This document shows, in pieces, positions 21,747 through 55,152 of a stretch of 64,000 nucleotides of DNA (the first letter of the stretch is position 1; every line of letters starts with the position of its first letter). The stretch covers positions 38,501 through 102,500 of the forward strand of contig JBAYWG010000001.1 of NCBI GenBank assembly GCA_041674225.1, read 5' to 3'. A program made the translations under genes and the position numbers. The notes beneath the pieces were generated by a model. The model was given only the letters and a program-made list of their open reading frames with translations, searched no databases and was not told where the DNA came from. The stretch comes from Minisyncoccota bacterium. GTDB taxonomy: Bacteria > Patescibacteriota > Minisyncoccia > Phycocordibacterales > JAACPR01.

Positions 21747-21780
21747 AAAGAAAAAAGAGCGGGACTTGAGGTCCCACTCT
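21747..21780. terminator. Hairpin plus U-tract terminator (copy A of a 34-bp repeat). It ends the minus-strand island operon and the plus-strand rnr gene.
   Basis: The stem is agagcgggac/gtcccactct. On the minus strand the hairpin is followed by TTTTTTCTTTTATTTTTT. Confidence 0.55.
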
Positions 21781-21815
21781 TTGTTAATATTCAAAGGTTC
21801 AATCCTAGGAAGAGT

Positions 21816-23435
21816 TTATTTCAACTCTTCCTCTATCTGACTAACCCACAACGATGGTTTGGAAGCATCCACTTTGACTGGCTTCGTTGTCGAAGAGTCT
21901 GTAACAAAAACCTCAATTGAAGATCCGGCTACAAAGCCTTCACCAACATTTGTCTTCGTTACAATGGTTGAAATCCAACAAAGCCTAGTCGTTCCGTTTA
22001 TCTTTCGAATATACGGCCTATGCTCAGCCACATCATTTGCACTCCAATCAACAGTGTTTGCCTTCTGTTTAATGAAGGTCGCTATTGACGACACGCCAGC
22101 AAGGTTTTCATTCCTTTCCGCGTGTTCATAGTAGTACAATTTTCCAACACCGTCAGCCGGAAAGAACACAGAGACGGACAATCCAGACTTATCACGACTT
22201 TCATCTTGATAAGGCTCCAATGCAAAGTAGTGATACAACTTCGACCTAGCATCCCCTTCGCCGAAGCTAAAGAATGTAGTGAAAGGTTGCTCATTTACAT
22301 CACCCGCTAGATCCGGAATGCGGATATCCCGGTAATGCGTTAGTGGGAAAGGAGCAAGGTATCCATAACGAAACCTGAAGCTGTTCGCAACGTGTCTCGA
22401 TACTTCGTACGGTACAAGATTCTGACCAGCAAGCCAGTCATAATTCTTGATATGCTCCGGACGAATCCAATCTCCTTCTCCAACAAACAATCTCTTAATG
22501 AATTTTAAAAATCCACCTTCTGATTGCTTGATGATTACAACCCCACCGAAATGAGGTCTTGGAAAAATAAATCCGTCCCACTTAGTCAACGTCACACACT
22601 GAACCATCTTTCCATCCGGTCCGGGGATGTACTTCATCGCACTGGGCTCATAGGAGAGAAACCTCCAGAAAGCAAAGCTCTGACGCGCCAAGTAAGACAC
22701 GTCTTTTGTGAAATACATCGTCTCACCTGAATCGAAGTTTACCTTGATCTGGTTTTCTCCACCGAACTCTAGCAACGAACTCTGCCCCGGAAGGCTAAAT
22801 ATCCTATCAACTTTTCCGAAGAATCGTTGATGTGGATAAGCTGGTTCTATGCCCACAGTCCAATGAGGATCACCATCACCCCACGAAACATAGTCCGGAA
22901 CTGGGGTGTGCAATGTATCAGCAATACGAGTATTAGTCGCAGTGTGAATCGAATTCAGTGGATGAATCCGCTCAAATCTCGTCTCTGGCAAAGCTTCCAA
23001 GGAAACTTTGTCCAAAGTTTTGAATTGAGCATACAGTGTGTGGTAATAGTGAGGCTTACTATTTGTTGCAATGACTGCAACTAAGCCTGCAATCACAATT
23101 CCACAGATGAGCAATGTTGGTATGTACCTACCTTTTTTAATTAGTAGGCGCATAACCAAGACAAGAATCACAAATCCCAATATTTCAGGGAGAAGAATTC
23201 TTACATTCACAACGAGAGGTTGAAAGTAGGGCTTGAAAACCCAGAATGTTGGCAAGCCAACGCTCAAGAGCACCAGGCTCTTAACTTTATTCCTCCACAT
23301 AACTGATGCGACCCACCGAAGCAAATGGAAAGGCACCCAAAGGATGCTTCCATATTCTTCCGATCGTCTTCTCCAACGACGACGAGGTTTTTCGACCTCA
23401 GCGTTGGTAGTTGCGGTAATTGTTTCTTCCATCAT
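21816..23435 (-). CDS. Hypothetical membrane-anchored protein (about three N-terminal TM helices plus a roughly 400-aa extracytoplasmic domain)
   Basis: The 539-aa ORF has hydrophobic segments between aa ~40 and 125 and shows higher GC and different codon usage than the neighbouring core genes. Its start overlaps the upstream gene's stop by 4 nt (ATGA). Confidence 0.5.
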   Translation of the reverse strand: MMEETITATTNAEVEKPRRRWRRRSEEYGSILWVPFHLLRWVASVMWRNKVKSLVLLSVGLPTFWVFKPYFQPLVVNVRILLPEILGFVILVLVMRLLIKKGRYIPTLLICGIVIAGLVAVIATNSKPHYYHTLYAQFKTLDKVSLEALPETRFERIHPLNSIHTATNTRIADTLHTPVPDYVSWGDGDPHWTVGIEPAYPHQRFFGKVDRIFSLPGQSSLLEFGGENQIKVNFDSGETMYFTKDVSYLARQSFAFWRFLSYEPSAMKYIPGPDGKMVQCVTLTKWDGFIFPRPHFGGVVIIKQSEGGFLKFIKRLFVGEGDWIRPEHIKNYDWLAGQNLVPYEVSRHVANSFRFRYGYLAPFPLTHYRDIRIPDLAGDVNEQPFTTFFSFGEGDARSKLYHYFALEPYQDESRDKSGLSVSVFFPADGVGKLYYYEHAERNENLAGVSSIATFIKQKANTVDWSANDVAEHRPYIRKINGTTRLCWISTIVTKTNVGEGFVAGSSIEVFVTDSSTTKPVKVDASKPSLWVSQIEEELK

Positions 23436-24079
23436 TTTCTGTTTGTGAATTTTTTGAGAATTTCCATGTCATCTTCTTCTGTGTTTTCGACGACAGGCTC
23501 TTTTTCTTGTTGAATTTGAGGTTCAGTTTCCTTTCCAAACCTTGATTTTCCAGTCACTTTTTTCACAAGTGAATTAGCAGCACCAATGACTTTATCAGTC
23601 ATTACATTTCTTGCTTCCTCAACATCTTGAAAAGCTTCTTTTGCGCCGAACATTAGCTCCTCTTGAAGCTCACCAGTTTTTACTGATTCATGAATCTCAT
23701 CGATCTTATCGATTGCCTTGTCACGACCTCTTTTGATCATGAAAGCAACCGGACCAAAGAGAATCCCCGCAAAAACTAGGATCGCATCCAAAATGGAACT
23801 GAATACCTCGACCACAGGATTTGTTCCCATAAACACCACCATAATGATGTTTGTGAGAGTCGAAATTAAAGCCGCCCAAGCGAACTTGACCGCCAGTTTT
23901 CGATTATAGAGAAACCCAAATTCCTCTTCTGGAGCGAGCTCATCTTTGTGAAAGAGATTGAATCTCTTTCTCTGAAATTTCACACCGTAGACTCTGTCAA
24001 CAATGTAACAGTTGAATCCGATGATGAAGTAAACGAGCAACGAGTAGATGATGTATGTTTTGATTGGAATGGTTTCCAT
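23432..24079 (-). CDS. Hypothetical membrane protein (2-3 TM helices) with an acidic C-terminal tail
   Basis: The 215-aa ORF has hydrophobic helices at aa ~8-30 and ~70-110 and is translationally coupled to the downstream gene. Confidence 0.5.
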   Translation of the reverse strand: METIPIKTYIIYSLLVYFIIGFNCYIVDRVYGVKFQRKRFNLFHKDELAPEEEFGFLYNRKLAVKFAWAALISTLTNIIMVVFMGTNPVVEVFSSILDAILVFAGILFGPVAFMIKRGRDKAIDKIDEIHESVKTGELQEELMFGAKEAFQDVEEARNVMTDKVIGAANSLVKKVTGKSRFGKETEPQIQQEKEPVVENTEEDDMEILKKFTNRK

Positions 24080-24096
24080 TTTCTATTTCCTTTCTC

Positions 24097-25374
24097 TTAG
24101 TTAGTCTTTTTTTGTGCCCTCTTCAGGCGGTTTTTTTCAACACATGCTATGGCGTGTTTTTTTCTTGTTTCACTCCACTGCAAGTATTGGTTGAAGAAGT
24201 ACGGCTTATTAAAGGCGTACGTCAATTCACACGGAGACCAAACCAAAGTGACCAAAAGACTCATCAATAAATTGTAGAGAATTGGATCTTCTTCTGATTT
24301 TACTACTGGTCTCAACAAACAAAGTTTCAATTCCTCAGGAATTTTCTCGACATCAATTTCTTCACCATCAACAATTTGATTGTAAAGTTTTTGTAGATCC
24401 CGATAAATCGAAGGAAGATCATCACTTAAAGTTTTTGCGTAAAAATCCTTCTTCGCATCTGTGATTGACGTGATATCAAAAGCTTCATTATTAGCCTCGT
24501 GACCACAAATCACATGTTCCAAGATAGTCTCACGAAGTCGAAGAAGAATTTGTGGCTTTTGTCTGAATACATCCAGACTGAATTCCAACAACCCTTCCTC
24601 TTTAAGTCGAACTAGGACTTCTTCTTTGTCATTAAGAAACATAACATCTCCACGGCCAATGTATTCGGCTTGCGGAGTTTCAAGAATCATTAATGATTTA
24701 GAATTTTTAAGGTTTCCACGAAAAATATAGACACCTCCAAAAGCTTTGATGTGGAAAGAAGAAACTTTCATGTAAGGAATATTCTCAATCACCAATGAAC
24801 GGTAACGAAGATCTCCAAACCCATTTCCACTCTCCTGCAGTTTTTGTCTCAAATCAGAATTCATCCAATTCAATCCTTGACGAATATCTTGGACGAGACA
24901 TCTTTGTGTACGTGCTGCATTCATCAGACTTCCAATCGTGTGAACTATCACGACAACACTGTTGATCATTAAAAGATCTTCCAGAGTCGTATATTGATCA
25001 AACCGTTGATCCATATCAATCCACATTGCAGTCTGAGAAGTCAGGTCTGCAATTTGTTGTGAAGCCGCTCCGAAAAAAGTCTGCATCAAATCCCGATCAA
25101 ACGAATGATGAGGATAATACACAGGTAGTCCTTTTTGCTCAGGTGTTACCACAATCGCATAAGGATTAGCATCACCATTTGAGAGATAATAATTATCTCC
25201 GAAGTCATCTGCTAATTCCGGAGACCAACCTCTACCATCAATGTGAATTTTTTCTCTTTCGGTAGGCTGTCTTCCGACTTCCATCAAACATTTGTTGTAT
25301 AGGCTGATCACGGCGGGACTTGAAATTTCAATTAATCCATTTCCAAACAATCCACTTTTTCTAAGTTGTTCCAT
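24097..25374 (-). CDS. Hypothetical soluble protein (425 aa)
   Basis: An uninterrupted ORF with no recognisable motif that lies 18 nt upstream of the two membrane protein genes on the same strand. Confidence 0.5.
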   Translation of the reverse strand: MEQLRKSGLFGNGLIEISSPAVISLYNKCLMEVGRQPTEREKIHIDGRGWSPELADDFGDNYYLSNGDANPYAIVVTPEQKGLPVYYPHHSFDRDLMQTFFGAASQQIADLTSQTAMWIDMDQRFDQYTTLEDLLMINSVVVIVHTIGSLMNAARTQRCLVQDIRQGLNWMNSDLRQKLQESGNGFGDLRYRSLVIENIPYMKVSSFHIKAFGGVYIFRGNLKNSKSLMILETPQAEYIGRGDVMFLNDKEEVLVRLKEEGLLEFSLDVFRQKPQILLRLRETILEHVICGHEANNEAFDITSITDAKKDFYAKTLSDDLPSIYRDLQKLYNQIVDGEEIDVEKIPEELKLCLLRPVVKSEEDPILYNLLMSLLVTLVWSPCELTYAFNKPYFFNQYLQWSETRKKHAIACVEKNRLKRAQKKTN

Positions 25375-25456
25375 TTTCTCTATTGTTTTTTGTTGTAAGT
25401 TATTGTCAAAGATTTCCGGCTGATTTTAACACGTTTTTAAAAAAAGTCAAAGAAAA

Positions 25457-25489
25457 AACGAGCTAAATCCCAGGGGGATTTAGCTCGTT
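25457..25489 (-). terminator. Intrinsic terminator after the AAA ATPase gene
   Basis: aacgagctaaatccc-aggg-ggatttagctcgtt forms a 12-bp perfect stem. On the minus strand it is followed by TTTTTTCTTTG. Confidence 0.55.
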
Positions 25490-25507
25490 AAAGAGCAAGC
25501 AAAAAAC

Positions 25508-27493
25508 TCAGTAGATAACATTTGGCGAAATGCCAAGATCTGCTGCACGTTTCTGCGCTGCAAGTCGATTAGAGCCTCTTTTCAGCATAGCCGAAATTTC
25601 ACGCTCATCCTCAACCGAACCAATACGGGCAGCATTAACCAGATACGTAATGGCTTCACGGTATATAACATCAGACAATTTCATGCCTTTGACATTATCA
25701 CTCATTAGACCACGCAGTACTTTCAACCTGTCCTCGAATGGTTTTTCAAAAAACAAAGAATGATCATCGAAGAACTCCTCTGGCATATCGAAATCCATCG
25801 CTCGAATATTGACCGCGCTTTGGATGTTTCGAAGGTCGCGAGAACTGAACATTGGTATCACCTTACGCACTTGCATATAGAGCTTTCCAAAAAATTCAGC
25901 TTCGCAAATTTCATGATCTTTCCGAATTTCTTCGAAAATTTCCAAAATCCTTGGATCAGCAATCTGAACTTCACCAGTCTCAATTTCATCCAGAGAAGCC
26001 AACTTGCGCTGACCGCTCATGAACTCGTAACGAGAGATTGGTTTGATGTCCACAAAATCAGGATTACTCTCAGCGAATTTACTCCACCAAAGATAATCTT
26101 GATCAACAAAGTCTTCGACAGACATTGCCCCATCGATAGGAAACTTACTTTGAACTCGCGACATAATCGCAGGATCAATAGTTTCTGGCAAATTGGTCAT
26201 CAAATCGATTGCCCAGTTACCATTGTTGATGGCATATGCACCTTCGGTGTAACGTAGAAATACTCCCATCAGGATTCTTTCACCCTCAGAAACATCATCT
26301 CCACTTCTATTCTTGAAGTAATTCTCTCCATCATCAATCGGACCGTAGATAACTTTGTCACTATCATGGAATCTTTGCATCCACTTTAGCATGTTGGTAG
26401 CACTTTCTCCTTGAAGGCCTGAGACAATGTTGTCCGGCATAGGATGAAATAGGAACGGAATACCACGTTTGTCACACAAGTCCTGCGCATAAGTTGCAGT
26501 AGCCGCAATGATCAAAGATTTTCCAGTTCCAGGATTACCATGACCTAAACAAATTGGAGTTAACCCTTTCATTACATGCCAAGGATTTTTCTTCAATTTG
26601 ACATCATAACAAGCCAATCTCATCGCTTTACGACGCGCAGCGTGTTTTGCGGCCACGTTTCCGACAATGTCGCCGAAATCCACTCGATTGAATTCACGTG
26701 ACACGACCACAACAACCGACTGCATCTCAAAACCATCAATAATAAACTCCTCATCCTCAAGCTTGTAGCTATTGTTTGTGAAGAAGTCCATATACTCCAT
26801 GGCTCCGAGCCTCTTGGACAATTCGTCCAAGACATTCTCGAAATACATCAGACTGAACTTGATAAAAGAAGTCGAATCGCGAACGATATTTCCCCTTTCA
26901 AGATACAGTCCGTAATAATACAGAATACAGTTGGTTGAAACAAAATTGTCAGTCAAATTTATTTCCGGAATCCCTCCGAAAGGCAAATCGATGACACTAG
27001 TTTTATCCGCCTTGTAACTACTCAACTTCCAACGAATGTAAGAAGCGGTAGCAAAAACTGAAGCGAATGTTCCCGTTTGTTTTTGAGAATTGAAAATTTT
27101 CATTTCACTCTCCAACAGCCGACTAGACGTATTCCGAAGAATAAGCTGATCAAGACCAGAAGCTTGGCAGTAGAGTTCGAAAACCCTCATACCAATCATG
27201 AATCCTGTACGAATACTATCCAAGACATAAACAGCGTCTACATCGAGAAGTGATTCGTCACCAAAGATTTTTGCGACAGAATCACGTATTTTCACAGAAT
27301 CTTTTCCCCCACCAAAATCAATCGACGAGGCTGGAAGCCATGTGCCGGGTTGAGCAGCGGTTGAAACCATTTTGTTGGCGGCATCCTTTTTGGGAGTCCA
27401 CTCAACAATCTTGAGCTTCGGATTGACTCGTTCCCTGTGTTCTTGATATTCCGATTTTTTTAGCGGAATGTGTGCTTTCGCGTTAGTTGACAT
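25508..27493 (-). CDS. AAA+ ATPase (classic AAA clade) with a roughly 300-aa uncharacterised N-terminal domain
   Basis: It has Walker A GHGNPGTGKS and an atypical Walker B region KVIYGPIDDGE. The second region of homology, MTNLPETIDPAIMSRV, matches the canonical ATNRPDxLDPALLR. Confidence 0.7.
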   Translation of the reverse strand: MSTNAKAHIPLKKSEYQEHRERVNPKLKIVEWTPKKDAANKMVSTAAQPGTWLPASSIDFGGGKDSVKIRDSVAKIFGDESLLDVDAVYVLDSIRTGFMIGMRVFELYCQASGLDQLILRNTSSRLLESEMKIFNSQKQTGTFASVFATASYIRWKLSSYKADKTSVIDLPFGGIPEINLTDNFVSTNCILYYYGLYLERGNIVRDSTSFIKFSLMYFENVLDELSKRLGAMEYMDFFTNNSYKLEDEEFIIDGFEMQSVVVVVSREFNRVDFGDIVGNVAAKHAARRKAMRLACYDVKLKKNPWHVMKGLTPICLGHGNPGTGKSLIIAATATYAQDLCDKRGIPFLFHPMPDNIVSGLQGESATNMLKWMQRFHDSDKVIYGPIDDGENYFKNRSGDDVSEGERILMGVFLRYTEGAYAINNGNWAIDLMTNLPETIDPAIMSRVQSKFPIDGAMSVEDFVDQDYLWWSKFAESNPDFVDIKPISRYEFMSGQRKLASLDEIETGEVQIADPRILEIFEEIRKDHEICEAEFFGKLYMQVRKVIPMFSSRDLRNIQSAVNIRAMDFDMPEEFFDDHSLFFEKPFEDRLKVLRGLMSDNVKGMKLSDVIYREAITYLVNAARIGSVEDEREISAMLKRGSNRLAAQKRAADLGISPNVIY

Positions 27494-28613
27494 TGAGTAC
27501 TCCTTTTTGTGTGTAGGTTATTGTTTGATGTTGTTTGTAAGGCGAAAAATATTCCGCCGTACGATTGATATTTTGCAGAACACGATGAGGAAGCATTAAT
27601 TTTCTCACAACACTCGTTGCTCGATTTTCATATGCAATCCGGTCATCATTTGGAATGAAGAAAACTTCACGAACTCTACCGCCCCTAGAAAACACTCCTG
27701 AGGTAACTTTACTACCCGTAGAAATTATTTTTTCCGAACGCAGTTCAAGAACGAAATCATTCTCGCCACCGTATTTCCTGAGTAATTCACAAAAATCAGC
27801 ACCACTTTCACTCACGCTTGTCAGCGGAGTAAACAGGGGTCCAATTTGAATCCTCTCCAAAAATTTTGGATGAATAGAATTTGAATGATCATCAATCTGA
27901 TGAATCAAAACTCCGATTTGCGGAACATGTTTACTTGAAAAGGAAACAGTATCCACAAATTGTTTCCAATCATCTCCACCATCCTCAAGGGGCTCACGGC
28001 TTGAATCCTGCTCAAATACCAAACTATGAAAGTAAGGCATATTGCAAATTTCTCCATAAACCGCCCAAGTAAAAATGTATCGACGATGTTCTTTGTCGTC
28101 GGAATCCAATCTTTCAAGACCTCCCATTGTAAAAGGTAGAAACATTCTACTCTCGTCCAAAAGATTCGCGTACTCACTTTTAGACAAATCTGAAAGAACT
28201 TCAGTTGTGTCAGCTCCTGTTGTAAGAAGCTTATCAACCAAAATATTTTTCAGCGTTTCCACACCTGCAACATTACGTGCAAGATCAACCTTTCGATTTA
28301 AATCATTTACAGTTTGGAAAATCGAAATTGCGTGTGGAAAACCAGATTCATTCAAATCCAGAGCCAATTCATGACTCGAATTAAAAGAATACTTGATCTT
28401 CAACAACACAATCGTGTAAAGCAGTCGATCAATCATGGGTTTTAAATCGCGCACAACATGATCCGTCGAGCTCCTCACACCTATCCACTCAAGAACTCGT
28501 CCAAGGACAACAGTCATGAGTATAAAGTATTTCGAGTATTCGTCTGGATTTTCGAGTTGCGCGAAATCTCCACACAATCTTTGTTCATCAATTGTTTTTA
28601 TTTCTCTATTCAA
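27483..28613 (-). CDS. Hypothetical protein (376 aa), translationally coupled to the AAA ATPase gene
   Basis: The ORF has no recognisable motif and overlaps the downstream AAA gene start by 11 nt. Confidence 0.5.
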   Translation of the reverse strand: MNREIKTIDEQRLCGDFAQLENPDEYSKYFILMTVVLGRVLEWIGVRSSTDHVVRDLKPMIDRLLYTIVLLKIKYSFNSSHELALDLNESGFPHAISIFQTVNDLNRKVDLARNVAGVETLKNILVDKLLTTGADTTEVLSDLSKSEYANLLDESRMFLPFTMGGLERLDSDDKEHRRYIFTWAVYGEICNMPYFHSLVFEQDSSREPLEDGGDDWKQFVDTVSFSSKHVPQIGVLIHQIDDHSNSIHPKFLERIQIGPLFTPLTSVSESGADFCELLRKYGGENDFVLELRSEKIISTGSKVTSGVFSRGGRVREVFFIPNDDRIAYENRATSVVRKLMLPHRVLQNINRTAEYFSPYKQHQTITYTQKGVLNVN

Positions 28614-28676
28614 TTTAACCTCCTTGTTTTATTGTTTTATTATTGTTATTTGATTTGAAAAATTTTTCACTAAAAA

Positions 28677-28706
28677 GGGGGCGCAGAGCGGATGCTCCAC
28701 ACCCCC
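28677..28706 (-). terminator. GC-rich hairpin plus T-rich tract downstream of the coiled-coil gene
   Basis: The structure is ggggg-cgca-gagc-ggat-gctc-caca-ccccc. On the minus strand it is followed by CTTTTTAGTGAAAAATTTTTC. Confidence 0.4.
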
Positions 28707-28759
28707 AGTTGAGATAAACCTGAAAGGTCTATTCAATCGTGAATTTACAGCATCAGTGG

Positions 28760-30118
28760 TTATACACCACCTTCGCCATATGACGTTTCAGAAGATGCAA
28801 AAGGATCGAGACCGTATTGGTCCTTGAAACTTAGCACCATTGCATTAATTAGGTCTCTCGTCCGAGCCGCATTTTGAGCGGAGACAATTTTAACCTCTTC
28901 CAGAGACTTACGACGGCCAGGCATCTGAGCCAGCATGTCTGTCATTGCAGCGTCAGCTGCGACAACCATACTAACCATTGCCTCACGGTTGTTTAGATCA
29001 ATCTGCGCTCCGACTTCATCAAGATTCTTCAAAGCCTCCTGATCACTCAGGAGTTTATGAGAGGCGAGCCGTGCCTTGAAGGTTACGGCTCGTTCTTCAC
29101 AGCCACTTTTCAGCTGGATGATGAAAGACTGCAGGTTGCCGACCAATCTCTGAATAGCTATCGTAATAAGGCGAAACTCTTCAGCGTATTCGGTTTTTGA
29201 ACTCGACAAGACAAATGCATTGTTTCTAGCAACGCGAGCCTCCTCAAGTTCTCTACCAATGTTGGCGATGACTTCTTCCTGTTCGGAATATTCAACGCTT
29301 CCTTTGGTGATATAACCGAGCTTGCTCTCTTCTTCCTGCATTTTGTGTTGGAGATCCGCAAGGATACCTTCACATTCAGTAAGGGCTTTTATAGCCATGT
29401 CTTTCGCCTTGAACACAGACTCCATCTGTTTCGTAGCCTCGACGAGCATCTCCTGTCCATTTGCACGCGATTGCTCGGTAATCTCAATAACTTGACGGGT
29501 ACGCGTAATGTAAGCGTCAAAAGAATCTTCCATTGAAGCTTCCTTAAGTCTTTGGCGCGCACGTCGTTTTGATTCAACCTTGGCTTCTTCGACTTGAGAC
29601 TTCGCATCTTCAATCTTGGGAACAAGGCTGGTGACAGCACGATCACGCATAAAGAACAGATTCGTCTTGTTTTTTGCAAGAATCATCTGCTCTTCAAGTT
29701 GTTTGAGATTGAACTCAGCTTCACTGACCAAAGCAATGTCTTCTGGGTTTTCTTTACCCAAAGAAGCATACCCTTCATTGATTTTTTGAAGAACGGTAGT
29801 CATCGCAAGCATTGCATCTGCAAGATCTTTCTCTTCTTGCGCAACGTTTGCACGTACACCGCCAAGTGTAGAGCTCAGAATCCTTTCCCTCATTTGGGTA
29901 AGTTCTTCTGGAGACATTCCTTTTTTGGTAGTAGCTTCGGAAATCTGTCTATCAGATTCCTGCATAATCTCGACGAGTTTTTGAGAACCCATCAAAATAC
30001 CACCCTCTTCACGTGCAGACACAACTTCCTCGACCCTTTCTTCGACTCGAGTGATGTTTTGTCGATCTTGACTGGATAATGCGTCAAAAACATTTATTGG
30101 TTTTCTTGTTTCTGTCAT
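28760..30118 (-). CDS. All-alpha coiled-coil protein (452 aa), tentatively TelA-like (toxic-anion-resistance family)
   Basis: It is highly charged with heptad-like E/K/Q/L/A content throughout. The N-terminal segment GILMGSQKLVEIMQESDRQIS resembles the conserved FGxxaQxxLxxFSDxxL motif recalled for TelA. It is a monocistronic unit with its own terminator. Confidence 0.4.
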   Translation of the reverse strand: MTETRKPINVFDALSSQDRQNITRVEERVEEVVSAREEGGILMGSQKLVEIMQESDRQISEATTKKGMSPEELTQMRERILSSTLGGVRANVAQEEKDLADAMLAMTTVLQKINEGYASLGKENPEDIALVSEAEFNLKQLEEQMILAKNKTNLFFMRDRAVTSLVPKIEDAKSQVEEAKVESKRRARQRLKEASMEDSFDAYITRTRQVIEITEQSRANGQEMLVEATKQMESVFKAKDMAIKALTECEGILADLQHKMQEEESKLGYITKGSVEYSEQEEVIANIGRELEEARVARNNAFVLSSSKTEYAEEFRLITIAIQRLVGNLQSFIIQLKSGCEERAVTFKARLASHKLLSDQEALKNLDEVGAQIDLNNREAMVSMVVAADAAMTDMLAQMPGRRKSLEEVKIVSAQNAARTRDLINAMVLSFKDQYGLDPFASSETSYGEGGV

Positions 30119-30219
30119 TTACTTCTTTTGTTTTTATTTTAACGAACCTCTCCGGGTAACATACCCCTCAATTCATTCAGCAAATTAGCATAATTTATCT
30201 ATAATGTCAACTATTTTAG

Positions 30220-30253
30220 AAAGAAAAAAGAGCGGGACTTGCAGTCCCGCTCT
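30220..30253. terminator. Hairpin plus U-tract terminator (copy B of the 34-bp repeat) downstream of the 154-aa gene
   Basis: aaagaaaaaagagcgggacttgcagtcccgctct differs from copy A at only 3 positions. On the minus strand the hairpin is followed by TTTTTTCTTTC. Confidence 0.55.
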
Positions 30254-30272: not shown

Positions 30273-30737
30273 TTACTCGGCAGCAAAACGATAGTATGGA
30301 CTCTCAAATCTCCAAGCATAAAGCCCGTGCCAGTAGCAGACCACACTGTCGCCTTTTGCTCTGATGATAGGCACGAGTTCATTTCCGGCAATGTTTCTTA
30401 TCGCCGATTTCCAGCAGGCAACGAAGTTCTCCGGAAATCTTTCACTGAAAGTTTTAGGGGAAAGATCCATAAGTGCAAACCCGTCCTGTAAATTCAGCGT
30501 TCTCTCAATTTCGTCCGGAAGACTTTGAAATCTTTTCAAAATTTCTTTTCCAGAAAATATCAGCTCTCTTTGATCTGTTGTGAAGTATATGGGTTCCAAA
30601 TCAGAAACCTTATAACTCTCAGGTCCCGACTGTTGAAGTTCTGGGTAAAGAAACTCCTTGAAAGACAACAATGGTTTCTCGATTTTTGTTGGATCCAAAA
30701 ATTCACTACGATCAACTTTTATTTCTATAGGTTCCAT
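30273..30737 (-). CDS. Hypothetical 154-aa protein
   Basis: The ORF lies between smc and the island and is followed on the minus strand by hairpin copy B. Confidence 0.45.
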   Translation of the reverse strand: MEPIEIKVDRSEFLDPTKIEKPLLSFKEFLYPELQQSGPESYKVSDLEPIYFTTDQRELIFSGKEILKRFQSLPDEIERTLNLQDGFALMDLSPKTFSERFPENFVACWKSAIRNIAGNELVPIIRAKGDSVVCYWHGLYAWRFESPYYRFAAE

Positions 30738-30819: not shown

Positions 30820-33057
30820 CTACTTCGCATACTGCACCCCCTCATCAAATTTAATTGAAAGCAATTCAGAAATTCCTTGCATCATCGTCACGCCATAAAT
30901 CACACTCGCACGAGACATTGTTTCTCTATTGTGAGTAATTAAAATAAGTTGAGATCTGTCAGAAAGTCTCTCAATCATATCCGCGTATTTCTTTGAGTTT
31001 GATTCATCAAGCGCCGCATCTGTTTCATCCAAAATAATAAATGGCGGGGGATTCACAGCAGACATCGCAAATATAAGTGCAATCGAAGTCAGTGCTCTTT
31101 CTCCTCCAGAAAGCATCATCAATCCTTTCACTTTTTTTCGAGGCAATGAAATATCAATATCAATTCCCTCTTCTTGATCCAAATCATCTGGCACGCCATT
31201 GTTATCAAAATCAATATCAGTGTCAGACTTTTTGCGTCGCACTTCAGGTCGAACCAATTTCAAAGCAGCATCTCCACCACCAAACATCAACGCAAAAAAC
31301 TTTTGAAATTCTTTGTTTATCAAATCAACACCTTCTTTAAATCTTTTTGTAATTTCTATATCTAATTCAGAAATTAATTGTTTCAAAGACACAGCAGAAT
31401 TTTCCAAATCTGTAATTTCTTTTATCAAAAATTCATCTCGTTCTGTCACTTCTTCGTACTCTTTCAAAACCTCATGAGAGATTCCTCCACCAAGTTCTTC
31501 GATGCGAATTTTCATTTTCTCCAGCTCTCTTCGCTTTTCATTTTGAACATCTCGATTCTTCTCGACACCTTCCACAATCACAGCAGCTTCATAATCTACG
31601 GCTTCTCTACCAACTAGAACCATCGCTTCTGTTAATTCTCTTTTGAAATCTTCCTCAACACGAATCAACGCAGATTCTTCCATATTAATTCGATTCAATT
31701 CACTCATCAGTTGCCCTTTTTTATTTTCGAATTCAAAAATCTTTCGCTCCACATCGAGCATTGTTGTCTTTGAAGACTCAATTTCGTTTCTCAAAGTCGA
31801 AATATTACCTTCTAAATGTTTTTCTTTTTCTTCTAGAGCTTGAGCTTTTTCTTGAGCGTCATTTTTTTTGTTTTCTAAGTTTTTAATATCTTGCAACAAA
31901 TTCAAATCGGTTTCTTGAGGCATTTTTCTTCTTTCTAAAATAAAATTTGAAAAGGCATCCTTAATTTTCACCAGAGCATTTTTTAAAATCGAAATATCAC
32001 CATTAGCGACATCATCAGAAATTTTATCTATTGTAATTTTTAGGCTTTCAATATCTTTTAAAGAAACACTCACATCTTGTTCTTCTTTCTTTTCTCGCTC
32101 AACAATCCGCTCCAAAGATTTCAACTCACCTTCGATTTGTCCAATCTCTCGAAGCGCATTATTTCTCTCTGTTCGAACATCTGAAAGCTGATTGTTTAAA
32201 TTAGAAAGCTCATCCGTACGAGTGTCGCTTTGTTTTGATTTATTTAATTCTGTTTTAAATTCTACTAAACCTTTTTCGATTGAGTCTAATTCATTTTTAG
32301 GCGCGATTTTAGCTTCTGAAATATATTTCCTAGTTGCATCAATATATTTTTTCTCAATCGCAAGATATGTTCTATACGCAATTCTTAACTGATCTTTCAA
32401 TTCCCTAGTTTGCTCAATTTTTTCAACTTGTTTTTTTAAATATTTAATATGCGGAGCGATTTCTTTTCTCAAAGATTGCACTTGTGCCACATTTTCTTCT
32501 GTCTTTTGCAATCGTCTTTCGCTTTCTACTTTTTTATATTGAAAAACTCGAAGTCCAAGCGCGTCTTCAAGCATTGCTCGACGATCTTTTGGTGTGGCAT
32601 TCAAAATTCTATCAGCTTCTCCTTGAGAAATAATATTGTGCCCAGACGCTCCAATATTTGCTCCAGCTAGAAGTTCTGAAATATCTTTCAAACGAACAGA
32701 AGTACCGTTTATAAAATAATCATTTATACCGTCACGATGCACAGCTCTTTCCAAAACCACTTCATCAAAATCCAAATCCAAACTCCGATCATTATTATCT
32801 AAAACAATTTTCACACTAGCTTTGTTTTGTCTTCCTAGTGCTGTAGTTCCATTGAAAATCAAATCTTCTCCACGCTTTCCTCGCATCGATTTAATAGATT
32901 GTTCTCCCAAAACAAAACGAAAAGCTTCTGCAACATTTGATTTTCCAGAACCGTTTGGCCCGACGATAGATGTAATTGAAGTATCGAAATCTAATCTGCT
33001 TTTCTTAGCAAAAGATTTAAATCCAGCGATTTCTAAAGCCTTTAATCTCATATCCAC
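30820..33057 (-). CDS. smc: Short SMC-family chromosome segregation ATPase (745 aa)
   Basis: It has an N-terminal Walker A (GPNGSGKSN), long coiled-coil arms and a C-terminal signature (LSGGERALTSIALIFA) with Walker B (ILDETDAALD). Confidence 0.8.
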   Translation of the reverse strand: MDMRLKALEIAGFKSFAKKSRLDFDTSITSIVGPNGSGKSNVAEAFRFVLGEQSIKSMRGKRGEDLIFNGTTALGRQNKASVKIVLDNNDRSLDLDFDEVVLERAVHRDGINDYFINGTSVRLKDISELLAGANIGASGHNIISQGEADRILNATPKDRRAMLEDALGLRVFQYKKVESERRLQKTEENVAQVQSLRKEIAPHIKYLKKQVEKIEQTRELKDQLRIAYRTYLAIEKKYIDATRKYISEAKIAPKNELDSIEKGLVEFKTELNKSKQSDTRTDELSNLNNQLSDVRTERNNALREIGQIEGELKSLERIVEREKKEEQDVSVSLKDIESLKITIDKISDDVANGDISILKNALVKIKDAFSNFILERRKMPQETDLNLLQDIKNLENKKNDAQEKAQALEEKEKHLEGNISTLRNEIESSKTTMLDVERKIFEFENKKGQLMSELNRINMEESALIRVEEDFKRELTEAMVLVGREAVDYEAAVIVEGVEKNRDVQNEKRRELEKMKIRIEELGGGISHEVLKEYEEVTERDEFLIKEITDLENSAVSLKQLISELDIEITKRFKEGVDLINKEFQKFFALMFGGGDAALKLVRPEVRRKKSDTDIDFDNNGVPDDLDQEEGIDIDISLPRKKVKGLMMLSGGERALTSIALIFAMSAVNPPPFIILDETDAALDESNSKKYADMIERLSDRSQLILITHNRETMSRASVIYGVTMMQGISELLSIKFDEGVQYAK

Positions 33058-41202: not shown

Positions 41203-42567
41203 TTAAGCAATTTTATTTGCGTTCTTATTTTGTTCTTTAAAATCTGAGATTTTATTAGAAACAACTTTTAGAGATCTTTGTTTCTTGAAATATAGAGCTA
41301 TCGCTGTACTCCATACTGCGATTAGAGCAAAAATTCCAAGAGCTTTTGCAATATCACTTGCTCCTGTATAAGGAACTTGTGATAGAAAGATTGAATCCAA
41401 AGATGAAAGATTACCTGTTGGTGTACCTAAGTTTGTTCCAGTAGTTACTGTAACTCTTCGGTCATCATCATCATTATCATCGTCATCATCATCCTCGTCT
41501 TCTACACGAACATCAGGACATTCGTCAGTAGCTCGGTCGCCATTAGCGTCACGTACTTCTACTGAAACTTCGTATGTCCCTCTTCGGTTGTAACGAACTC
41601 TTTCTTCGTCATCATCTCCAGAGATATCACCTTTCCATTCAATTCGGTATGATGATCTTCCTCCATCGATTTCAACTTCATAAGTCACTGTGTCTCCTTC
41701 CTCGATTCGAGTATCAGAAACTCTACAGATAATATTTAGATCGTCATCATCGTCATCGTTTGACTGAACAATGTGAGTTGTTGTACTACAATTAACATTG
41801 TTTACACTGCTACTTGCGTTACCAACATTACTACAATGAGCATTAATAGAGTTATCTGTAATAATTACATCGTCATCACTGTAGTTTAGATTTAATCCAA
41901 GAGCGTTCATTCCACCACCTTGTGAACCTCCACCTCCACAACCTGATCCAGAACATCCTCCTCCATTAGAACCTCCACCACCTTGTGAACCTCCTCCATT
42001 ATAACCTCCACCGTTAGATCCTCCTCCAGTGTAACCACCGTTAGAACCTGATCCACCTCCTAGGTAAGAATCGATGTAACTATCTGCTACACCATATCCA
42101 CCATAGTCGTAACCAGCGTAGTCATATCCACCGTAATCGTAACCAGCGTAGTCATATCCACCATAGTCGTAACCAGCGTAGTCATATCCACCGTAGTCGT
42201 AACCAGCGTAGTCATATCCACCGTAATCGTATCCAGCGTAGTCATATCCACCGTAATCGTATCCAGCGTAGTCATATCCACCGTAGTCATAACCAGAGTA
42301 ATCGTATCCACCGTAGTCGTATCCACTGTAGTCATACCCACCGTAATCATAACCAGAGTAATCGTATCCACCGTAATCGTATCCACCGTAGTCGTATCCA
42401 CCGTAGTCGTATCCACTTGATCCATAATCATATCCTCCACCGTAGTCATACCCACCGTAGTCGTATTGAGCTGATGCGTTTTCAATATTGAAAACACCGA
42501 AAGCTGTAAATACTACAAAAAGTAATACGAAAGCGTTAATGATGTTTAATTGTTTTTTGATAATCAT
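41203..42567 (-). CDS. Secreted YDYGG-repeat / Gly-rich / Asp-rich surface protein with a C-terminal VPYTG motif, TM helix and basic tail (candidate sortase substrate)
   Basis: A signal peptide is followed by about 25 copies of (G/S/A)YDYGGYDY, then a GGSNGGG region. An Ig-like segment between poly-Asp runs comes next, and the C-terminus reads VPYTGAS...IFALIAVWSTAIALYF-KKQRSLK. Confidence 0.7.
   Translation of the reverse strand: MIIKKQLNIINAFVLLFVVFTAFGVFNIENASAQYDYGGYDYGGGYDYGSSGYDYGGYDYGGYDYGGYDYSGYDYGGYDYSGYDYGGYDYSGYDYGGYDYAGYDYGGYDYAGYDYGGYDYAGYDYGGYDYAGYDYGGYDYAGYDYGGYDYAGYDYGGYGVADSYIDSYLGGGSGSNGGYTGGGSNGGGYNGGGSQGGGGSNGGGCSGSGCGGGGSQGGGMNALGLNLNYSDDDVIITDNSINAHCSNVGNASSSVNNVNCSTTTHIVQSNDDDDDDLNIICRVSDTRIEEGDTVTYEVEIDGGRSSYRIEWKGDISGDDDEERVRYNRRGTYEVSVEVRDANGDRATDECPDVRVEDEDDDDDDNDDDDRRVTVTTGTNLGTPTGNLSSLDSIFLSQVPYTGASDIAKALGIFALIAVWSTAIALYFKKQRSLKVVSNKISDFKEQNKNANKIA
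42091..42470. repeat. Near-perfect 30-bp tandem DNA repeat encoding the YDYGGYDYxG array
   Basis: The unit gtcatatccaccgtaatcgtaaccagcgta is repeated about 12 times, with only occasional a/g and t/c changes. Confidence 0.8.
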
Positions 42568-42733
42568 GATAATTGTTTTATATAAGATAATTTGAACATT
42601 ACACTAAATTTGTAACGTATTTATATGATAACATTTTTATATACAAATGTCAATCCTTATCTTTACTTTAAATAAAAATGCCTCGCCGTCTGAATTAACA
42701 AACGACGAGGACATTGAGCAAGATTTTCACTTA

Positions 42734-43411
42734 CTATTCCGCAAGGATGTACGGCACAACGACCGTCTCATTCCTCGAAGTACTGAAGACACTGAAGGTC
42801 TTGATTTCCTTACCGCTCGCCAACCGACGAACGTCAGGGTTAGTCGAGGCCGATTCCCCATTTACAGGTCCTCGCGGACCGACGAAGGTTTTGATTTTTT
42901 CGCCAGTATCCGGGTGGGTCCCGTCTTCCAGTCTCCAGCCGACGTTGTCACCGATAGTGACAGGGGTACTCGATTGAGCACCACTACCCCTCACAACAGT
43001 CTTGCGAACCACATGGTAAGCACCAGTGGCAGAAGCCTCGAGTTTCTCACCCGGAAACAACTTGTTGCTGGTAATCGCCTTGAAGATCTTCGCGTCTGCA
43101 GGGTCTGGGTCATGCATCAACCCCAACATAAAGACTTCGCCTTCATGCGACCACCCAGCGAACGTGTCCACCGGTTCTCCAACCTTGGTGTACATGTCGC
43201 ACAAGCGGATGATCTGAGGCCAAGCGTTACAATCGGAGCCATAAGCCTCGACGAATTTTTGCCACAAATCCTGTTTCACCAAGCCAGGCTTGACGTCGAG
43301 GACAACCGAAGGATTCGCGTCAGGCATCTTAACGACACCTTGAGCCTGTGAATTACCGGTGATAAAAAATACCACCGCCGTCATGATGATTGCAATTGCT
43401 GCGTTTTTCAT
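42734..43411 (-). CDS. Secreted hypothetical protein (225 aa, signal peptide)
   Basis: The N-terminus MKNAAIAIIMTAVVFFITGNSQAQG is a clear Sec signal peptide. The region has higher GC, and a terminator hairpin sits downstream at about 42681-42712. The opposite-strand ORF at 42647-43351 is judged spurious. Confidence 0.5.
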   Translation of the reverse strand: MKNAAIAIIMTAVVFFITGNSQAQGVVKMPDANPSVVLDVKPGLVKQDLWQKFVEAYGSDCNAWPQIIRLCDMYTKVGEPVDTFAGWSHEGEVFMLGLMHDPDPADAKIFKAITSNKLFPGEKLEASATGAYHVVRKTVVRGSGAQSSTPVTIGDNVGWRLEDGTHPDTGEKIKTFVGPRGPVNGESASTNPDVRRLASGKEIKTFSVFSTSRNETVVVPYILAE

Positions 43412-43562: not shown

Positions 43563-44600
43563 TTACCTCCTGATTCCAGACATCATTCCATGAATCATCT
43601 GCCCTAGGGAAGGATGATTCTGATGAGAGTCTCTTCCACCTCTTTCACGTTGAAAGTCTTGTAGACATCTCTCCCGATAGTCAGGACGATAAGGTCCTGT
43701 ACGATACATTGGTGACCGCACCGGTGATCGATTATTTGTTGTAAAGAAATTATTTCTTGGCGCCATATGATTCGCCATAAAGAAATTATTTCTCGGCTGC
43801 TCTCTGTAAGAAGTACGGGGATGTGTCGTTGTAAAACAATCATCTCTCGGTAACTCTCTGTAAGAAGTACGAGTAGGTATCACTTCCGCACGATAAATAG
43901 GTTGAGTCCGAACATGTTCTCTCACAACTGGTCGTTCACAAGTAACTTGAGGTTGTCCTATTTCTACACACCCAAGATTCAAGGATGACTCACAATTACC
44001 AACGGTATTTGTCACACCACGAATTTCTCCAAATGTTGTAGAAGCAGCACGACGATTGTCGTGAATGATTGCTGTTCTTCCACGGATTTCTCCGAAGGTT
44101 ACATCCACACTACGACTATCCTCATGAATCATCGTTTTGCCACCACGGATTTCTCCGAAGGAAACATCGACATTTCTGTGGTCTTCACAAATAACGGTTG
44201 CACCGCCACGGATTTCACCGAAGGTTACACTAACACTACGGCTATCATCTTCAATAATAGTCATACCACCGCGAATTTCTCCGAAATTCACAACTGAACT
44301 GCGTTCATCCCGAACAATCTTTATTCCACCATAAACTTCTCCAAAGGTCACGAGGTATTGCTCGGGCTCAGGAGGTTCATCTCCACCGCTCTTGTCCCAG
44401 GGTATACCTGGTGTAGGAACGGGTTTAATATACGGATCACCAAAAAGTGGTATTGGGGGGATTTCGTCGGACTTTTCCGCACCAGGAACTGGTGGAGGAA
44501 GAATGCGACCATCGTCATCAGGCTTTACATTTCCATCATCCGAACTGACATTCACCGACATCATACCAAGCGTGAAAAATATCAAGTAAGTAATTTTCAT
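43563..44600 (-). CDS. Secreted protein with six 22-aa tandem repeats (TFGEIRGGxTxIxEDxRSVxV) and a Pro/Arg/Tyr-rich C-terminal region
   Basis: A signal peptide and Pro-rich linker are followed by the repeat block, then a Cys-containing segment and an R/Y/P-rich tail (SYRELPR.../SYREQPR...). Confidence 0.55.
   Translation of the reverse strand: MKITYLIFFTLGMMSVNVSSDDGNVKPDDDGRILPPPVPGAEKSDEIPPIPLFGDPYIKPVPTPGIPWDKSGGDEPPEPEQYLVTFGEVYGGIKIVRDERSSVVNFGEIRGGMTIIEDDSRSVSVTFGEIRGGATVICEDHRNVDVSFGEIRGGKTMIHEDSRSVDVTFGEIRGRTAIIHDNRRAASTTFGEIRGVTNTVGNCESSLNLGCVEIGQPQVTCERPVVREHVRTQPIYRAEVIPTRTSYRELPRDDCFTTTHPRTSYREQPRNNFFMANHMAPRNNFFTTNNRSPVRSPMYRTGPYRPDYRERCLQDFQRERGGRDSHQNHPSLGQMIHGMMSGIRR
43990..44350. 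repeat. Imperfect ~66-bp tandem repeats (6 copies) encoding the FGEIRGG 22-aa units
   Basis: ccacggatttctccgaaggt..., ccgccacggatttcaccgaaggt... and ccaccgcgaatttctccgaaat... recur at about 66-bp spacing. Confidence 0.7.
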
Positions 44601-53004: not shown

Positions 53005-53077
53005 CCGCCTATAGCTCAGCTGGTAGAGCAGTCGCCTCTTAAGCGAACGGTCGTAGGTCCGAGTCCTACTAGGCGGA
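53005..53077 (+). tRNA. tRNA-Lys (anticodon CTT)
   Basis: Acceptor ccgccta/taggcgg, D-arm agctcagctggtagagc, anticodon stem tcgc/gcga with loop ctCTTaa, and T-arm gtagg-tccgagt-cctac. Confidence 0.8.
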
Positions 53078-53239
53078 CAAGCGAGCAAATAAGGAAGTGT
53101 GTTTTACATTTCCTTATTTGCGAGCGCGGACGCCTTGCACGAAGTTCAGGCGGACAAGCGAGCAAATAAGGAAGTGTGTTTTACATTTCCTTATTTGCGA
53201 GCGCGGACGCCTTGCACGAAGTTCAGGCGGACAAGCGAG
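53072..53239 (+). repeat. 77-bp direct tandem repeat (2.2 copies) that begins with the last 6 nt of tRNA-Lys; each unit contains a 15-bp palindromic hairpin
   Basis: Units start at 53072, 53149 and 53226. The third unit is truncated after ggcggacaagcgag. Each unit carries gcaaataaggaagtgt-gtttt-acatttccttatttgc. Confidence 0.85.
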
Positions 53240-53482: not shown

Positions 53483-54652
53483 TTGGTAAAAAATGTGCTA
53501 ATATATACACAAATTAAAACGTGCTCAATGTGTATTGAGCCGTGTGGCTCTTTCACAGGTCGAATGACCATGCGCGAAAAACTTACAGAAAAAATGATAT
53601 TCACTACATCTGAACAAGTTCGTGAACACTTGAAAAAAGTTTCACTAAAGCCAGAGTACTCTATTCTGGTTTTGATATCTATATCAGGAATCATTTCATG
53701 GGTAGCATCAATGGTGATCGCCTATTTTTATGAAATGTCCTTTTATGGAGTACTGCCAGGAACAATGTTCTTGGCAATAACCACAATGATCGTCTTCGTA
53801 CTTCTCCCTTTGGGAAAAATACAAATCAAGATGGGTCACAAAGGTATCCCAACTTTCTTGGACAAAAGGCGTTTCGAAGAAAGATATCCTAGAGCAGAGC
53901 TTTGCATACTTGAGGAAGGCACTCACTGGGGAATACCTGGTCTATGTGGAGCTATCAGTGTCAGTTTCGAAGAAGATTCAATTTCCATCGAGAAAGCGAT
54001 TGCAAAAGTACCGATCGATCCAGTACACAAAACTGGAAAATTCAAAACGGCTACTTTTGTTGATATTGAGTTTTCAGAAGGAAAGTTGCAATTCATGGTA
54101 TCTGATCCCTATGCATTTACCAACGTTGGAGCTGCTGGACTGAAGGAGGATTTAACTTCTGCAATAGGAGAAGCAATTCGAGACTTTGCCATAACGACAA
54201 CCACAAAGGCTGTTTATGAGGCGGGTGTAAACGGATTTATCCTTGATAACATCAAGCAGCGTAAGACAGATGGGGTTAGACTAGATACGGAACGATGGGG
54301 TATTCTGCCATTGGCAGCCTTTTTTCCTAAAATAGATCCAGAAAACCCGAAAGTTAAGGAAGCTCTCGAGGGACAGTATTTGGAAGCTTTGAATAAAATC
54401 AAAGAGGTTTCTGAAGCTCAAACTCTGGCAGAAATATTCAGAAAACTCAAAGGTGCTGCTAAAGGTGCATCGGATGAGTTTGTCATGAGTGTCGCAATAA
54501 GAATTGTGGAAGACCTGACTAAGATCGGACAAGATGTGTTTATTCACAACCACGGCTCGGCTGGAAACGGCTCAGTTGATGGAGCTTTGTTCGGAATTGG
54601 TGCAGCTGTACTTAACCAAAGCAATCAAAACAGAGGAGGAACTCCAACATGA
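53483..54652 (+). CDS. Membrane-anchored protein, possibly SPFH/band-7-like (real start probably the MTMREK Met near 53569)
   Basis: Two N-terminal TM helices are followed by a soluble domain. Its segment FMVSDPYAFTNVGAAGLKEDLTSAIGEAIRDFAITTTTKAVYEAG resembles the SPFH core. This is a tentative call. Confidence 0.4.
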   Translation: MVKNVLIYTQIKTCSMCIEPCGSFTGRMTMREKLTEKMIFTTSEQVREHLKKVSLKPEYSILVLISISGIISWVASMVIAYFYEMSFYGVLPGTMFLAITTMIVFVLLPLGKIQIKMGHKGIPTFLDKRRFEERYPRAELCILEEGTHWGIPGLCGAISVSFEEDSISIEKAIAKVPIDPVHKTGKFKTATFVDIEFSEGKLQFMVSDPYAFTNVGAAGLKEDLTSAIGEAIRDFAITTTTKAVYEAGVNGFILDNIKQRKTDGVRLDTERWGILPLAAFFPKIDPENPKVKEALEGQYLEALNKIKEVSEAQTLAEIFRKLKGAAKGASDEFVMSVAIRIVEDLTKIGQDVFIHNHGSAGNGSVDGALFGIGAAVLNQSNQNRGGTPT

Positions 54653-55152
54653 TTGAACCTGAAGTAATTAAAACAAAAGGAATATCTCTAAAAGGTATTA
54701 TCTATTTTGTCGTAGGAGTTGTGATAGTCTTCTTCATTCTTGCTTGGACTTCGTCCTGCAAGAAAGGGGTTGAAGCACCTAAGCCTCCTAAAAAAGTGCT
54801 CGGAGAGGTGAGAACTGAAACGTTCACACTTCTTCCGGGAAAATCCATCGTCTTCTCGACAGTGGATGAAAAAACGGGTTTGCTCTGCAACTACATTCCA
54901 ATCTGGGATACGTGGACAGAAAAGTCTGAGCTTCGCCACACCACCCACAAGCGGTTTGGTCAGGACGGTGTTGGTAGTCTGGACTTGGCGGGATATTTAT
55001 TCCCCAAAGACAGAAGTACCTTCATCAAAGGTGACTCCGATCCTATCAATGACACCATTCACTATGTGATGGTAGAGAACATAGGACCTGACACGGTAAC
55101 GTTTACCGTAAGGTTCATAGGATGGCGGTTACCCCCCATCAAACCACTGTAA
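54649..55152 (+). CDS. Hypothetical membrane-anchored protein with a beta-rich C-terminal domain
   Basis: Its start overlaps the upstream stop (ATGA). It has an N-terminal TM helix and a downstream terminator. Confidence 0.45.
   Translation: MIEPEVIKTKGISLKGIIYFVVGVVIVFFILAWTSSCKKGVEAPKPPKKVLGEVRTETFTLLPGKSIVFSTVDEKTGLLCNYIPIWDTWTEKSELRHTTHKRFGQDGVGSLDLAGYLFPKDRSTFIKGDSDPINDTIHYVMVENIGPDTVTFTVRFIGWRLPPIKPL

Follow-up and report, generated by a model that had tools for sequence, protein, structure and literature searches.

The window analysed here is a stretch of 64,000 nucleotides (64 kb) from the genome of a Minisyncoccota bacterium (GenBank assembly GCA_041674225.1, contig JBAYWG010000001.1, positions 38,501 to 102,500 of the forward strand). 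Between the stop codons of two of its core genes, rnr and smc, lies a segment of seven minus-strand genes, six of which form the module that is the subject of this work and are called A to F in order of transcription (Table 1). An earlier reading of the sequence, referred to below as the original prediction, had described an island of six minus-strand open reading frames (ORFs) of 215-661 amino acids (aa), bracketed by two hairpin repeats and free of recognisable housekeeping families. All six ORFs are present where they had been placed, and family-library scans agree that none of the six proteins belongs to a housekeeping family. The count was one gene short, as there are seven ORFs in all between rnr and smc and the gene for a 154-aa protein, beyond the hairpin bracket, had been missed.

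Table 1. Features of the segment between rnr and smc (positions in the window)
Feature	Position	Strand	Description
Whole inserted segment	21738..30819		Seven genes, about 9.1 kb, from rnr stop to smc stop; extent based on empty sites in related contigs
Hairpin copy 1	21747..21780	-	Intrinsic terminator 3' of F; may also serve the convergent rnr (+ strand)
Gene F	21816..23435	-	539 aa; basic N-terminus, 3 transmembrane helices, beta-rich domain of about 400 aa, outward by prediction
Gene E	23432..24079	-	215 aa; 3 transmembrane segments, charged cytoplasmic loop and tail (hydropathy); 4-bp overlap with F
Gene D	24097..25374	-	425 aa; DUF6638 (PF20343); soluble
Promoter-like site upstream of D	25423..25450	-	TTGACT-16-TAAAAT with TG (consensus scan); identical motif at same position in L004
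Internal terminator 3' of C	25457..25489	-	15-bp stem, -23.3 kcal/mol, z -8.4; hairpin at same position in L004
Gene C	25508..27493	-	661 aa; classical-clade AAA+ ATPase; N-domain of 265 aa, C-terminal region of about 200 aa
Gene B	27483..28613	-	376 aa from TTG start (JGI gene call: 344 aa); soluble; 11-bp overlap with C
Internal terminator 3' of A	28677..28706	-	13-bp stem, -26.4 kcal/mol; similar sequence at same position in L004
Gene A	28760..30118	-	452 aa; coiled-coil type; conserved C-terminal YG[IL]D motif
Hairpin copy 2	30220..30253	-	Intrinsic terminator of 154-aa gene; inside the insertion
154-aa gene	30273..30737	-	Lineage-specific; part of the insertion, outside the six-gene module

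A mobile six-gene module in an old insertion

The six genes recur together across several bacterial phyla. A scan of one genome per species of the Genome Taxonomy Database (GTDB) gave at least 538 confirmed matches to D, with carriers in Bacteroidota (Flavobacteriales, Chitinophagales), in Desulfobacterota including cable bacteria and Desulfonema, in many classes of Patescibacteria, and in Bdellovibrionota, Trueperaceae (Deinococcota) and Gammaproteobacteria; one homologue of F was assigned to Verrucomicrobiales. When 87 module loci, fetched through their D homologues, were searched by phmmer with the window proteins, C and D were each recovered in 84 loci, B in 82, A in 78 and F in 77; the genes always share one strand and follow the order A-B-C-D-(E)-F. 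Among the 77 loci with both D and F, most have a small E-type protein in the slot between them, with several predicted transmembrane (TM) segments (two to four, mostly three). The Flavobacteriia version of E is too divergent for phmmer; even so, most loci have in this slot an ORF of 170-230 aa that shows the same three hydrophobic segments. B and C are separated by a median of 1 bp (82 loci) and A and B typically by about 80 bp, and the gap between C and D tolerates inserted genes, including NUDIX, hydrolase and toxin-antitoxin genes.

Some loci depart from this layout in detail. A NUDIX hydrolase gene stands between C and D in 10-11 Flavobacteriaceae loci. In Tenacibaculum maritimum (L001/L002), a dienelactone-hydrolase/peptidase_S9-type hydrolase is encoded between B and C, and a 212-aa protein after C. 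In a Flavobacteriales metagenome-assembled genome (L035, 6915-10001), B and C form one ORF of 1028 aa, which is either a real fusion, in which case it would support an interaction between the two proteins, or an indel of the long-read assembly. In Desulfonema magnum (L012), genes for a sigma-70 region-4 protein, FmdE, RecC and RecD2 lie downstream of A-D.

The 148 proteins encoded next to the module in 46 loci carry 150 different Pfam families, with no recurrent neighbour, and a neighbour-joining tree of concatenated B, C and D places the CPR (candidate phyla radiation, Patescibacteria) sequences in at least four clades among other phyla. Because collinear genes recur between unrelated flanks and the tree mixes phyla, the module is a self-contained unit that moves between phyla, with its collinearity and the inter-phylum mixing both directly observed; the suggestion that the six genes are a functional module of their own, and not scattered hypotheticals, is thereby upheld. 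Searches for mobile carriers returned no tblastn match to F in plasmids or phages and none to D in IMG/VR.

How the module came to lie in the window could be read from related genomes. Metagenome contigs were scanned with the SMC protein of the window, which yielded 80 related contigs with SMC proteins 48-57% identical to it. Among the roughly 60 with enough downstream sequence, smc and rnr are directly convergent in about 49, with gaps of -8 to 3565 bp (-8 to 5 bp in the three closest of the 80 relatives) and conserved synteny, nusB-rnc-smc/rnr-trmD, around the empty junctions. None of the 80 contigs has a module gene or the 154-aa gene between smc and rnr. Because of this empty-site synteny, the ancestral state is one in which smc and rnr are convergent and adjacent, and the window carries a genuine insertion of 9.1 kb, the 154-aa gene included. 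The junction varies across these contigs (L088-L167) from an 8-bp overlap to 3.6 kb and may be a recurrent hot spot for insertion.

A closer relative, L004, carries all seven of these genes at this very site, together with a 194-aa paralogue of the 154-aa gene. Because of this shared placement the insertion predates the split from the L004 lineage; the acquisition is old and does not qualify as recent. Between the window and L004, the flanks are 83% (SMC), 88% (RNase III) and 88% (NusB-NUDIX) identical and the module proteins 45% (A), 65% (B), 67% (C), 68% (D), 42% (E) and 69% (F); the 154-aa gene, which among the module loci is seen in L004-L006 only, is 49% identical to its L004 counterpart. 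The greater divergence of the module would point to fast evolution or to in-place replacement by a related module. The 194-aa paralogue of L004 (13701-14285; E-value 1.8e-4) lies between F and rnr, so that the module of L004 has a paralogue on either side; the window has no such copy.

Base composition sets the segment apart at third codon positions (GC3). The six module genes have a mean GC3 of 0.386 (0.32-0.44) and the 154-aa gene one of 0.394, against a mean of 0.273 for the other genes and 0.23-0.24 for rpoB and rpoC, and GC3 is raised as well in the module of L004 and in that of a third relative, where it follows pyrG. The overall GC contrast is smaller than had been predicted: island genes have 38-45%, the whole window 37.0% and rpoB 37.6%, not 33%. 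Nor is the island the only outlier, as the regions at 41.2-44.6 kb and 53.5-55.2 kb, whose proteins have no Pfam family above threshold, are equally GC-rich. With the module missing at this site from 80 of 80 related contigs, its proteins more diverged than the flanks in the closer relative, GC3 raised and the gene tree mixing phyla, the claim of horizontal acquisition stands, and the segment is an old horizontal insertion into an otherwise conserved smc/rnr junction of a Paceibacterota genome. It resembles genomic and defence islands in its insertion at a variable junction, deviant GC3, host-incongruent phylogeny and faster divergence than the flanks. It differs from them in that it is old and stably inherited, contains no known defence genes, shows no integrase or transposase domain in a Pfam scan, and has neither a tRNA target nor direct-repeat borders.

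The genomes of CPR bacteria are about 1 Mb in size and have lost most non-essential functions. Many CPR classes nevertheless keep this 8.4-kb module, and the same set of genes is found in marine Flavobacteriia, including the fish pathogen T. maritimum, in cable bacteria and in predatory Bdellovibrionota. The existence of cultivable carriers, among them Tenacibaculum maritimum, Polaribacter, Kordia and Dokdonia, makes the module directly testable, and the window itself provides a clean, dated case in which a conserved junction of a CPR genome has taken up a gene cluster.

Six proteins and a putative membrane-anchored machine

Scans of all the proteins against Pfam, NCBIfam, PHROGs and PADLOC identified C as AAA and D as DUF6638 only; four of the six families have no Pfam entry, and the fifth, D, is merely a domain of unknown function (DUF). 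The AAA+ ATPase and the two proteins with N-terminal TM segments that had been read from the sequence are all there. C matches PF00004 with an E-value of 8.5e-9 (36.4 bits against a cut-off of 21.2) and belongs to the classical clade. A profile of 33 C homologues found Cdc48 (6e-8), AFG2, Vps4 (4e-6) and Rpt4 in the PDB, each over the AAA core only; profile searches returned no PDB relative for its N-domain or its C-terminal region, and no MIT protein with the N-domain. Invariant in these homologues are Walker A (GxPGTGKS), Walker B (IDD), sensor-1 (TN) and a motif like the second region of homology (SRH), SRxQxRF, with R446. The pore-loop-1 position precedes an invariant QG (consensus STFQGGS), and the lid motif reads SSRDxRN where SGADI is usual. 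Walker B, at residues 387-390, has the form I-D-D-x-E with both Asp residues invariant, which places an Asp at the position of the catalytic Glu.

D matches PF20343 over its full length (residues 9-412; E-value 5.5e-31, 108.3 bits against a cut-off of 27), and its confident predicted structure has no fold neighbour in the PDB. Profile searches of the PDB with A, B, D and F gave no meaningful match, and scanning the members of the A, B and F homologue alignments one by one against Pfam gave nothing consistent. Across 33 homologues, B has no Pfam or PDB match, and its relatives are confined to its own family; the idea that B and D are paralogues was dropped (hhalign probability 0.1). The profile matches of A are generic coiled coils (keratin, ATP synthase b, designed coils), and none of its 32 homologues matches the Pfam families PspA_IM30 or Snf7 at an E-value of 0.01 or below. 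Its C-terminal YG[IL]D motif is followed, in most Bacteroidota and some others, by an acidic tail that usually ends in D-L-L/M. The cytoplasmic loop that hydropathy gives for E, between its three TM segments, is basic, and the tail is charged.

F has a confident model (pLDDT, the predicted local distance difference test, 90.3) that shows the architecture given in Table 1. Because its N-terminus and the loop between TM2 and TM3 are rich in K and R across 49 homologues, the large domain is placed outside. The only resemblance of F is to PepSY-like modules: the matches span a single module, and there is neither a Pfam PepSY match nor a global fold match. F has many invariant polar residues. Its family is small, with 322 clusters at the 50% identity level in a set of 1.84 billion representatives, and no Pfam domain occurs in its members, distant and extended forms included. 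One distant F-like gene lies in an archaeal context with Nop5 and fibrillarin (L173, 8001-9728), and an 821-aa F-like form is encoded beside an S8-L6-L18-S5-SecY ribosomal operon of a CPR bacterium (L168, 671-3136). Another stands 4 bp upstream of a pair of genes for an ABC ATPase and an ABC-2 permease (L170, 10001-14045).

Two strong minus-strand hairpins, at 28706-28677 and 25489-25457, act as terminators that split the module into the units A, B-C and D-E-F, which agrees with the three units originally predicted. L004 keeps both internal terminators, as well as the promoter-like site upstream of D, in place and partly in sequence.

We propose that the module probably builds a membrane-anchored, ATP-driven machine that remodels proteins by means of its AAA+ subunit. 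The AAA+ motifs, the pattern of TM topology and the lack of known relatives are observed; from these sequences we infer the roles of the subunits, a physical complex and an output directed to the envelope. C would be the motor, with ring formation suggested by its AAA clade; it retains ATP-binding, pore-loop, sensor-1 and arginine-finger residues, but has Asp in place of the Walker B Glu. B, which is presumably translationally coupled to C, and D, with its novel fold, might be soluble adaptors or substrate-handling subunits. A, as a transcription unit of its own upstream of a strong terminator, is probably more strongly expressed and could provide a coiled-coil scaffold, a polymer or a substrate that is bound or remodelled by C. 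E, with its cytoplasmic loop and tail, and F might tie the motor to the membrane, and the outward domain of F would then carry the output of the motor to the cell surface or periplasm. We count the distant F-like gene next to the ABC ATPase/ABC-2 permease pair in favour of such a connection with the membrane and the outside. Of the roles suggested originally, association with the membrane is supported, whereas assignment to one of the known defence systems is not.

A broader proposal, which we advance tentatively and with somewhat less confidence than the machine itself, is that the module represents an unrecognised class of trans-membrane machine, in which a classical AAA+ motor with three novel cytoplasmic partners, one of new fold, drives a novel outward-facing protein in an envelope, surface or secretion-type function that is no variant of a described system, and that this class has spread horizontally among at least six phyla and persisted even in the minimal genomes of CPR bacteria.

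Several observations weigh against the proposal of a membrane-anchored machine. The roles given to A, B, D and E were guessed from the protein architecture. The DD of Walker B, where DE would be expected, could make ATP hydrolysis slow or regulatory. In Trueperaceae (L047, L050) and in D. magnum, A-D occur without E or F nearby, and the membrane pair is therefore not obligatory in cis. Distant F-like proteins, conversely, occur alone in CPR and archaeal contexts. The tree of B, C and D is a neighbour-joining tree that carries no support values, and the faster divergence of the module than of its flanks, together with its occasional defence neighbours, would fit a conflict system as well.

Compared with described systems, C is like the unfoldases Cdc48/p97, Vps4 and Rpt in the core motifs of the classical clade, over about 130 core residues and with E-values of 1e-8 to 1e-5. 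It differs from them in its single AAA domain, in N- and C-terminal regions without known relatives and in the DD of Walker B, and the partner proteins of the module are unrelated to their adaptors. F comes closest to the PepSY proteins YpeB, YpmB and FoxB and to the VirB8/DotI-type periplasmic modules, but the matches are limited to one module and F has invariant polar residues of its own. The logic of a cytoplasmic ATPase acting on an outward-facing domain of a membrane protein is shared with mechanotransmission by FtsEX and MacB; this is an analogy only, as the ATPase is of the ABC type there and of the AAA+ type here and there is no homology to FtsX or MacB. Open-access literature text holds no mention of DUF6638 or PF20343, and a survey of PspA and AAA+ proteins (PMC11237479) describes contexts other than this six-gene cluster. 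With the open-access text as its literature basis, we rate the module as assignable to no described system and as new in kind. If the proposal is true, an AAA+ motor linked to an outward-facing domain would amount to new envelope biology or to a new principle of defence.

Defence and membrane remodelling as alternatives

The module might instead be a new system of defence against phages or mobile elements, in which A-D sense infection and E and F act as effectors by membrane disruption or abortive infection. Its horizontal mobility, patchy phyletic spread and raised GC3 would fit such a function, as would the rate at which its proteins diverge, about twice that of the flanking core proteins. 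Some neighbourhoods also suggest it: in Trueperaceae (L047), A-D are preceded by MADS-like genes and directly followed by a type I-B cas operon; the Electrothrix cluster is interrupted and is flanked by toxin-antitoxin, PDDEXK and Schlafen/AlbA genes; and phage-like genes lie upstream in one Tenacibaculum strain. Most of the 46 neighbourhoods nevertheless consist of housekeeping genes, and few of the 148 flanking proteins belong to defence families. None of the seven proteins matches PADLOC-DB 2.0 at an E-value of 0.1 or below, and no effector domain, such as a nuclease, NADase or protease, can be recognised in them. The searches of plasmids, phages and IMG/VR contigs with F and D queries, noted above, found no module. 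D is present in many T. maritimum assemblies and is not strain-variable, and the module is retained in many very small CPR genomes. On this balance we regard a defence function as unlikely.

We give less weight again to membrane remodelling in the manner of ESCRT-III/Vps4 (ESCRT, endosomal sorting complex required for transport) or of PspA/Vipp1, whereby polymers formed by A on the membrane would be taken apart by C. Bacterial PspA and Snf7 proteins associated with AAA+ ATPases are known (PMC11237479), and the module shares with these systems the joint encoding of a coiled-coil protein, small membrane proteins and an AAA+ ATPase of the classical type; two membrane partners are encoded here, and an action on membranes is plausible. 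C and Vps4 are both members of the classical AAA clade, and A is a separately transcribed coiled coil whose C-terminal peptide is conserved and might dock onto the ATPase. Against this, no PspA_IM30 or Snf7 match was found in any of the 32 A homologues (0/32), A is about twice as long as ESCRT-III or PspA, and profile searches with the N-domain of C recover neither an MIT protein nor any other relative in the PDB. In the profile search with C, Cdc48 outscores Vps4. The module has four further conserved subunits without an ESCRT counterpart, B, D and F among them, and is absent from the contexts described for PspA and AAA+ proteins. Taken together, these points make a remodelling system of this kind improbable, and the AAA+ machine with an outward-facing output remains our preferred reading.

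The hairpin pair and other features of the window

The two 34-bp hairpins that had been taken to delimit the island are as similar as predicted. A repeat search of the window found exactly two copies of the 34-mer, 31/34 identical, where shuffles predict 0, and they are the only dispersed intergenic repeat of this kind within it. Both lie on the minus strand and consist of a 12-bp GC-rich stem followed by TTTTTTCTTT, with folding energies of -18.9 kcal/mol (z -6.3) for copy 1 and -21.1 kcal/mol (z -5.1) for copy 2. Of the three mismatches, two fall in the loop and one at a G-U wobble of the stem, and the likeness stops exactly at the stem and T-run, with no DNA similarity beyond the 34 bp. Copy 1 lies 35 nt past the stop codon of F and copy 2 19 nt past that of the 154-aa gene; with a GC-rich stem-loop, a T-run and a same-strand stop codon upstream, both have the features of intrinsic (Rho-independent) terminators. 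Their sequence relatedness to other terminators was checked across 19-33.5 kb.

A reading of the hairpins as the termini of a mobile element that has the six genes as cargo, be they attachment sites or a target-site duplication, is largely refuted and by now very improbable. The presence of two such similar copies 8.5 kb apart, without a third intergenic repeat of the kind, is what speaks for it. The right copy, however, lies within the insertion, with the 154-aa gene beyond it; the outer terminators of L004 are related neither to those of the window nor to one another; and the hairpin, allowing up to 5 substitutions in its 23-nt core, was found in none of about 170 fetched loci and at none of the empty smc/rnr junctions, where the original prediction had suggested looking for a single copy. 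Identity is limited to the stem and T-run of two functional-looking terminators, and the segment has no integrase or transposase. The hairpins are therefore not borders of the island, and are best read as intrinsic terminators, each ending a transcription unit of its own, that either arose recently from a common local source or became alike by homogenisation. Hairpin 1 was also considered as the remnant of a lost paralogue of the 154-aa gene; the similarity ends at 34 bp and the terminators of L004 show no significant likeness, which leaves this idea speculative.

Least credible is the reading of the six genes as ordinary, vertically inherited, lineage-specific hypotheticals whose composition reflects expression level or amino-acid content only: their presence at the same site in L004 and the raised GC3 of other window genes without a Pfam family above threshold agree with it, but it is contradicted by the lack of these genes at the site in every one of the 80 relatives that are more distant, by their occurrence in at least six phyla and by a tree that departs from taxonomy.

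The SMC protein of the window (30820-33057) has 745 aa, which is short for an SMC protein, and this length is kept in 80/80 related contigs. Further along, two GC-rich genes without a Pfam match (41203-42567 and 43563-44600) both have internal repeats: the first has 15-nt units at about 41911-42482, which encode pentapeptide repeats, and the second has units of 63 nt (44017-44285) and of 54 nt (43767-43874). A pair of ORFs with a GC3 of 0.60 lies between them (42647-43411). In a cluster of four tRNA genes, a perfect 77-bp tandem duplication (53071-53224) starts inside the 3' end of tRNA-Lys (53005-53078). It is followed by two genes of high GC3 (0.35-0.48; 53483-55152), one of which has a weak, sub-threshold match to Band_7/SPFH, and the duplication could be the integration scar of another acquired segment.

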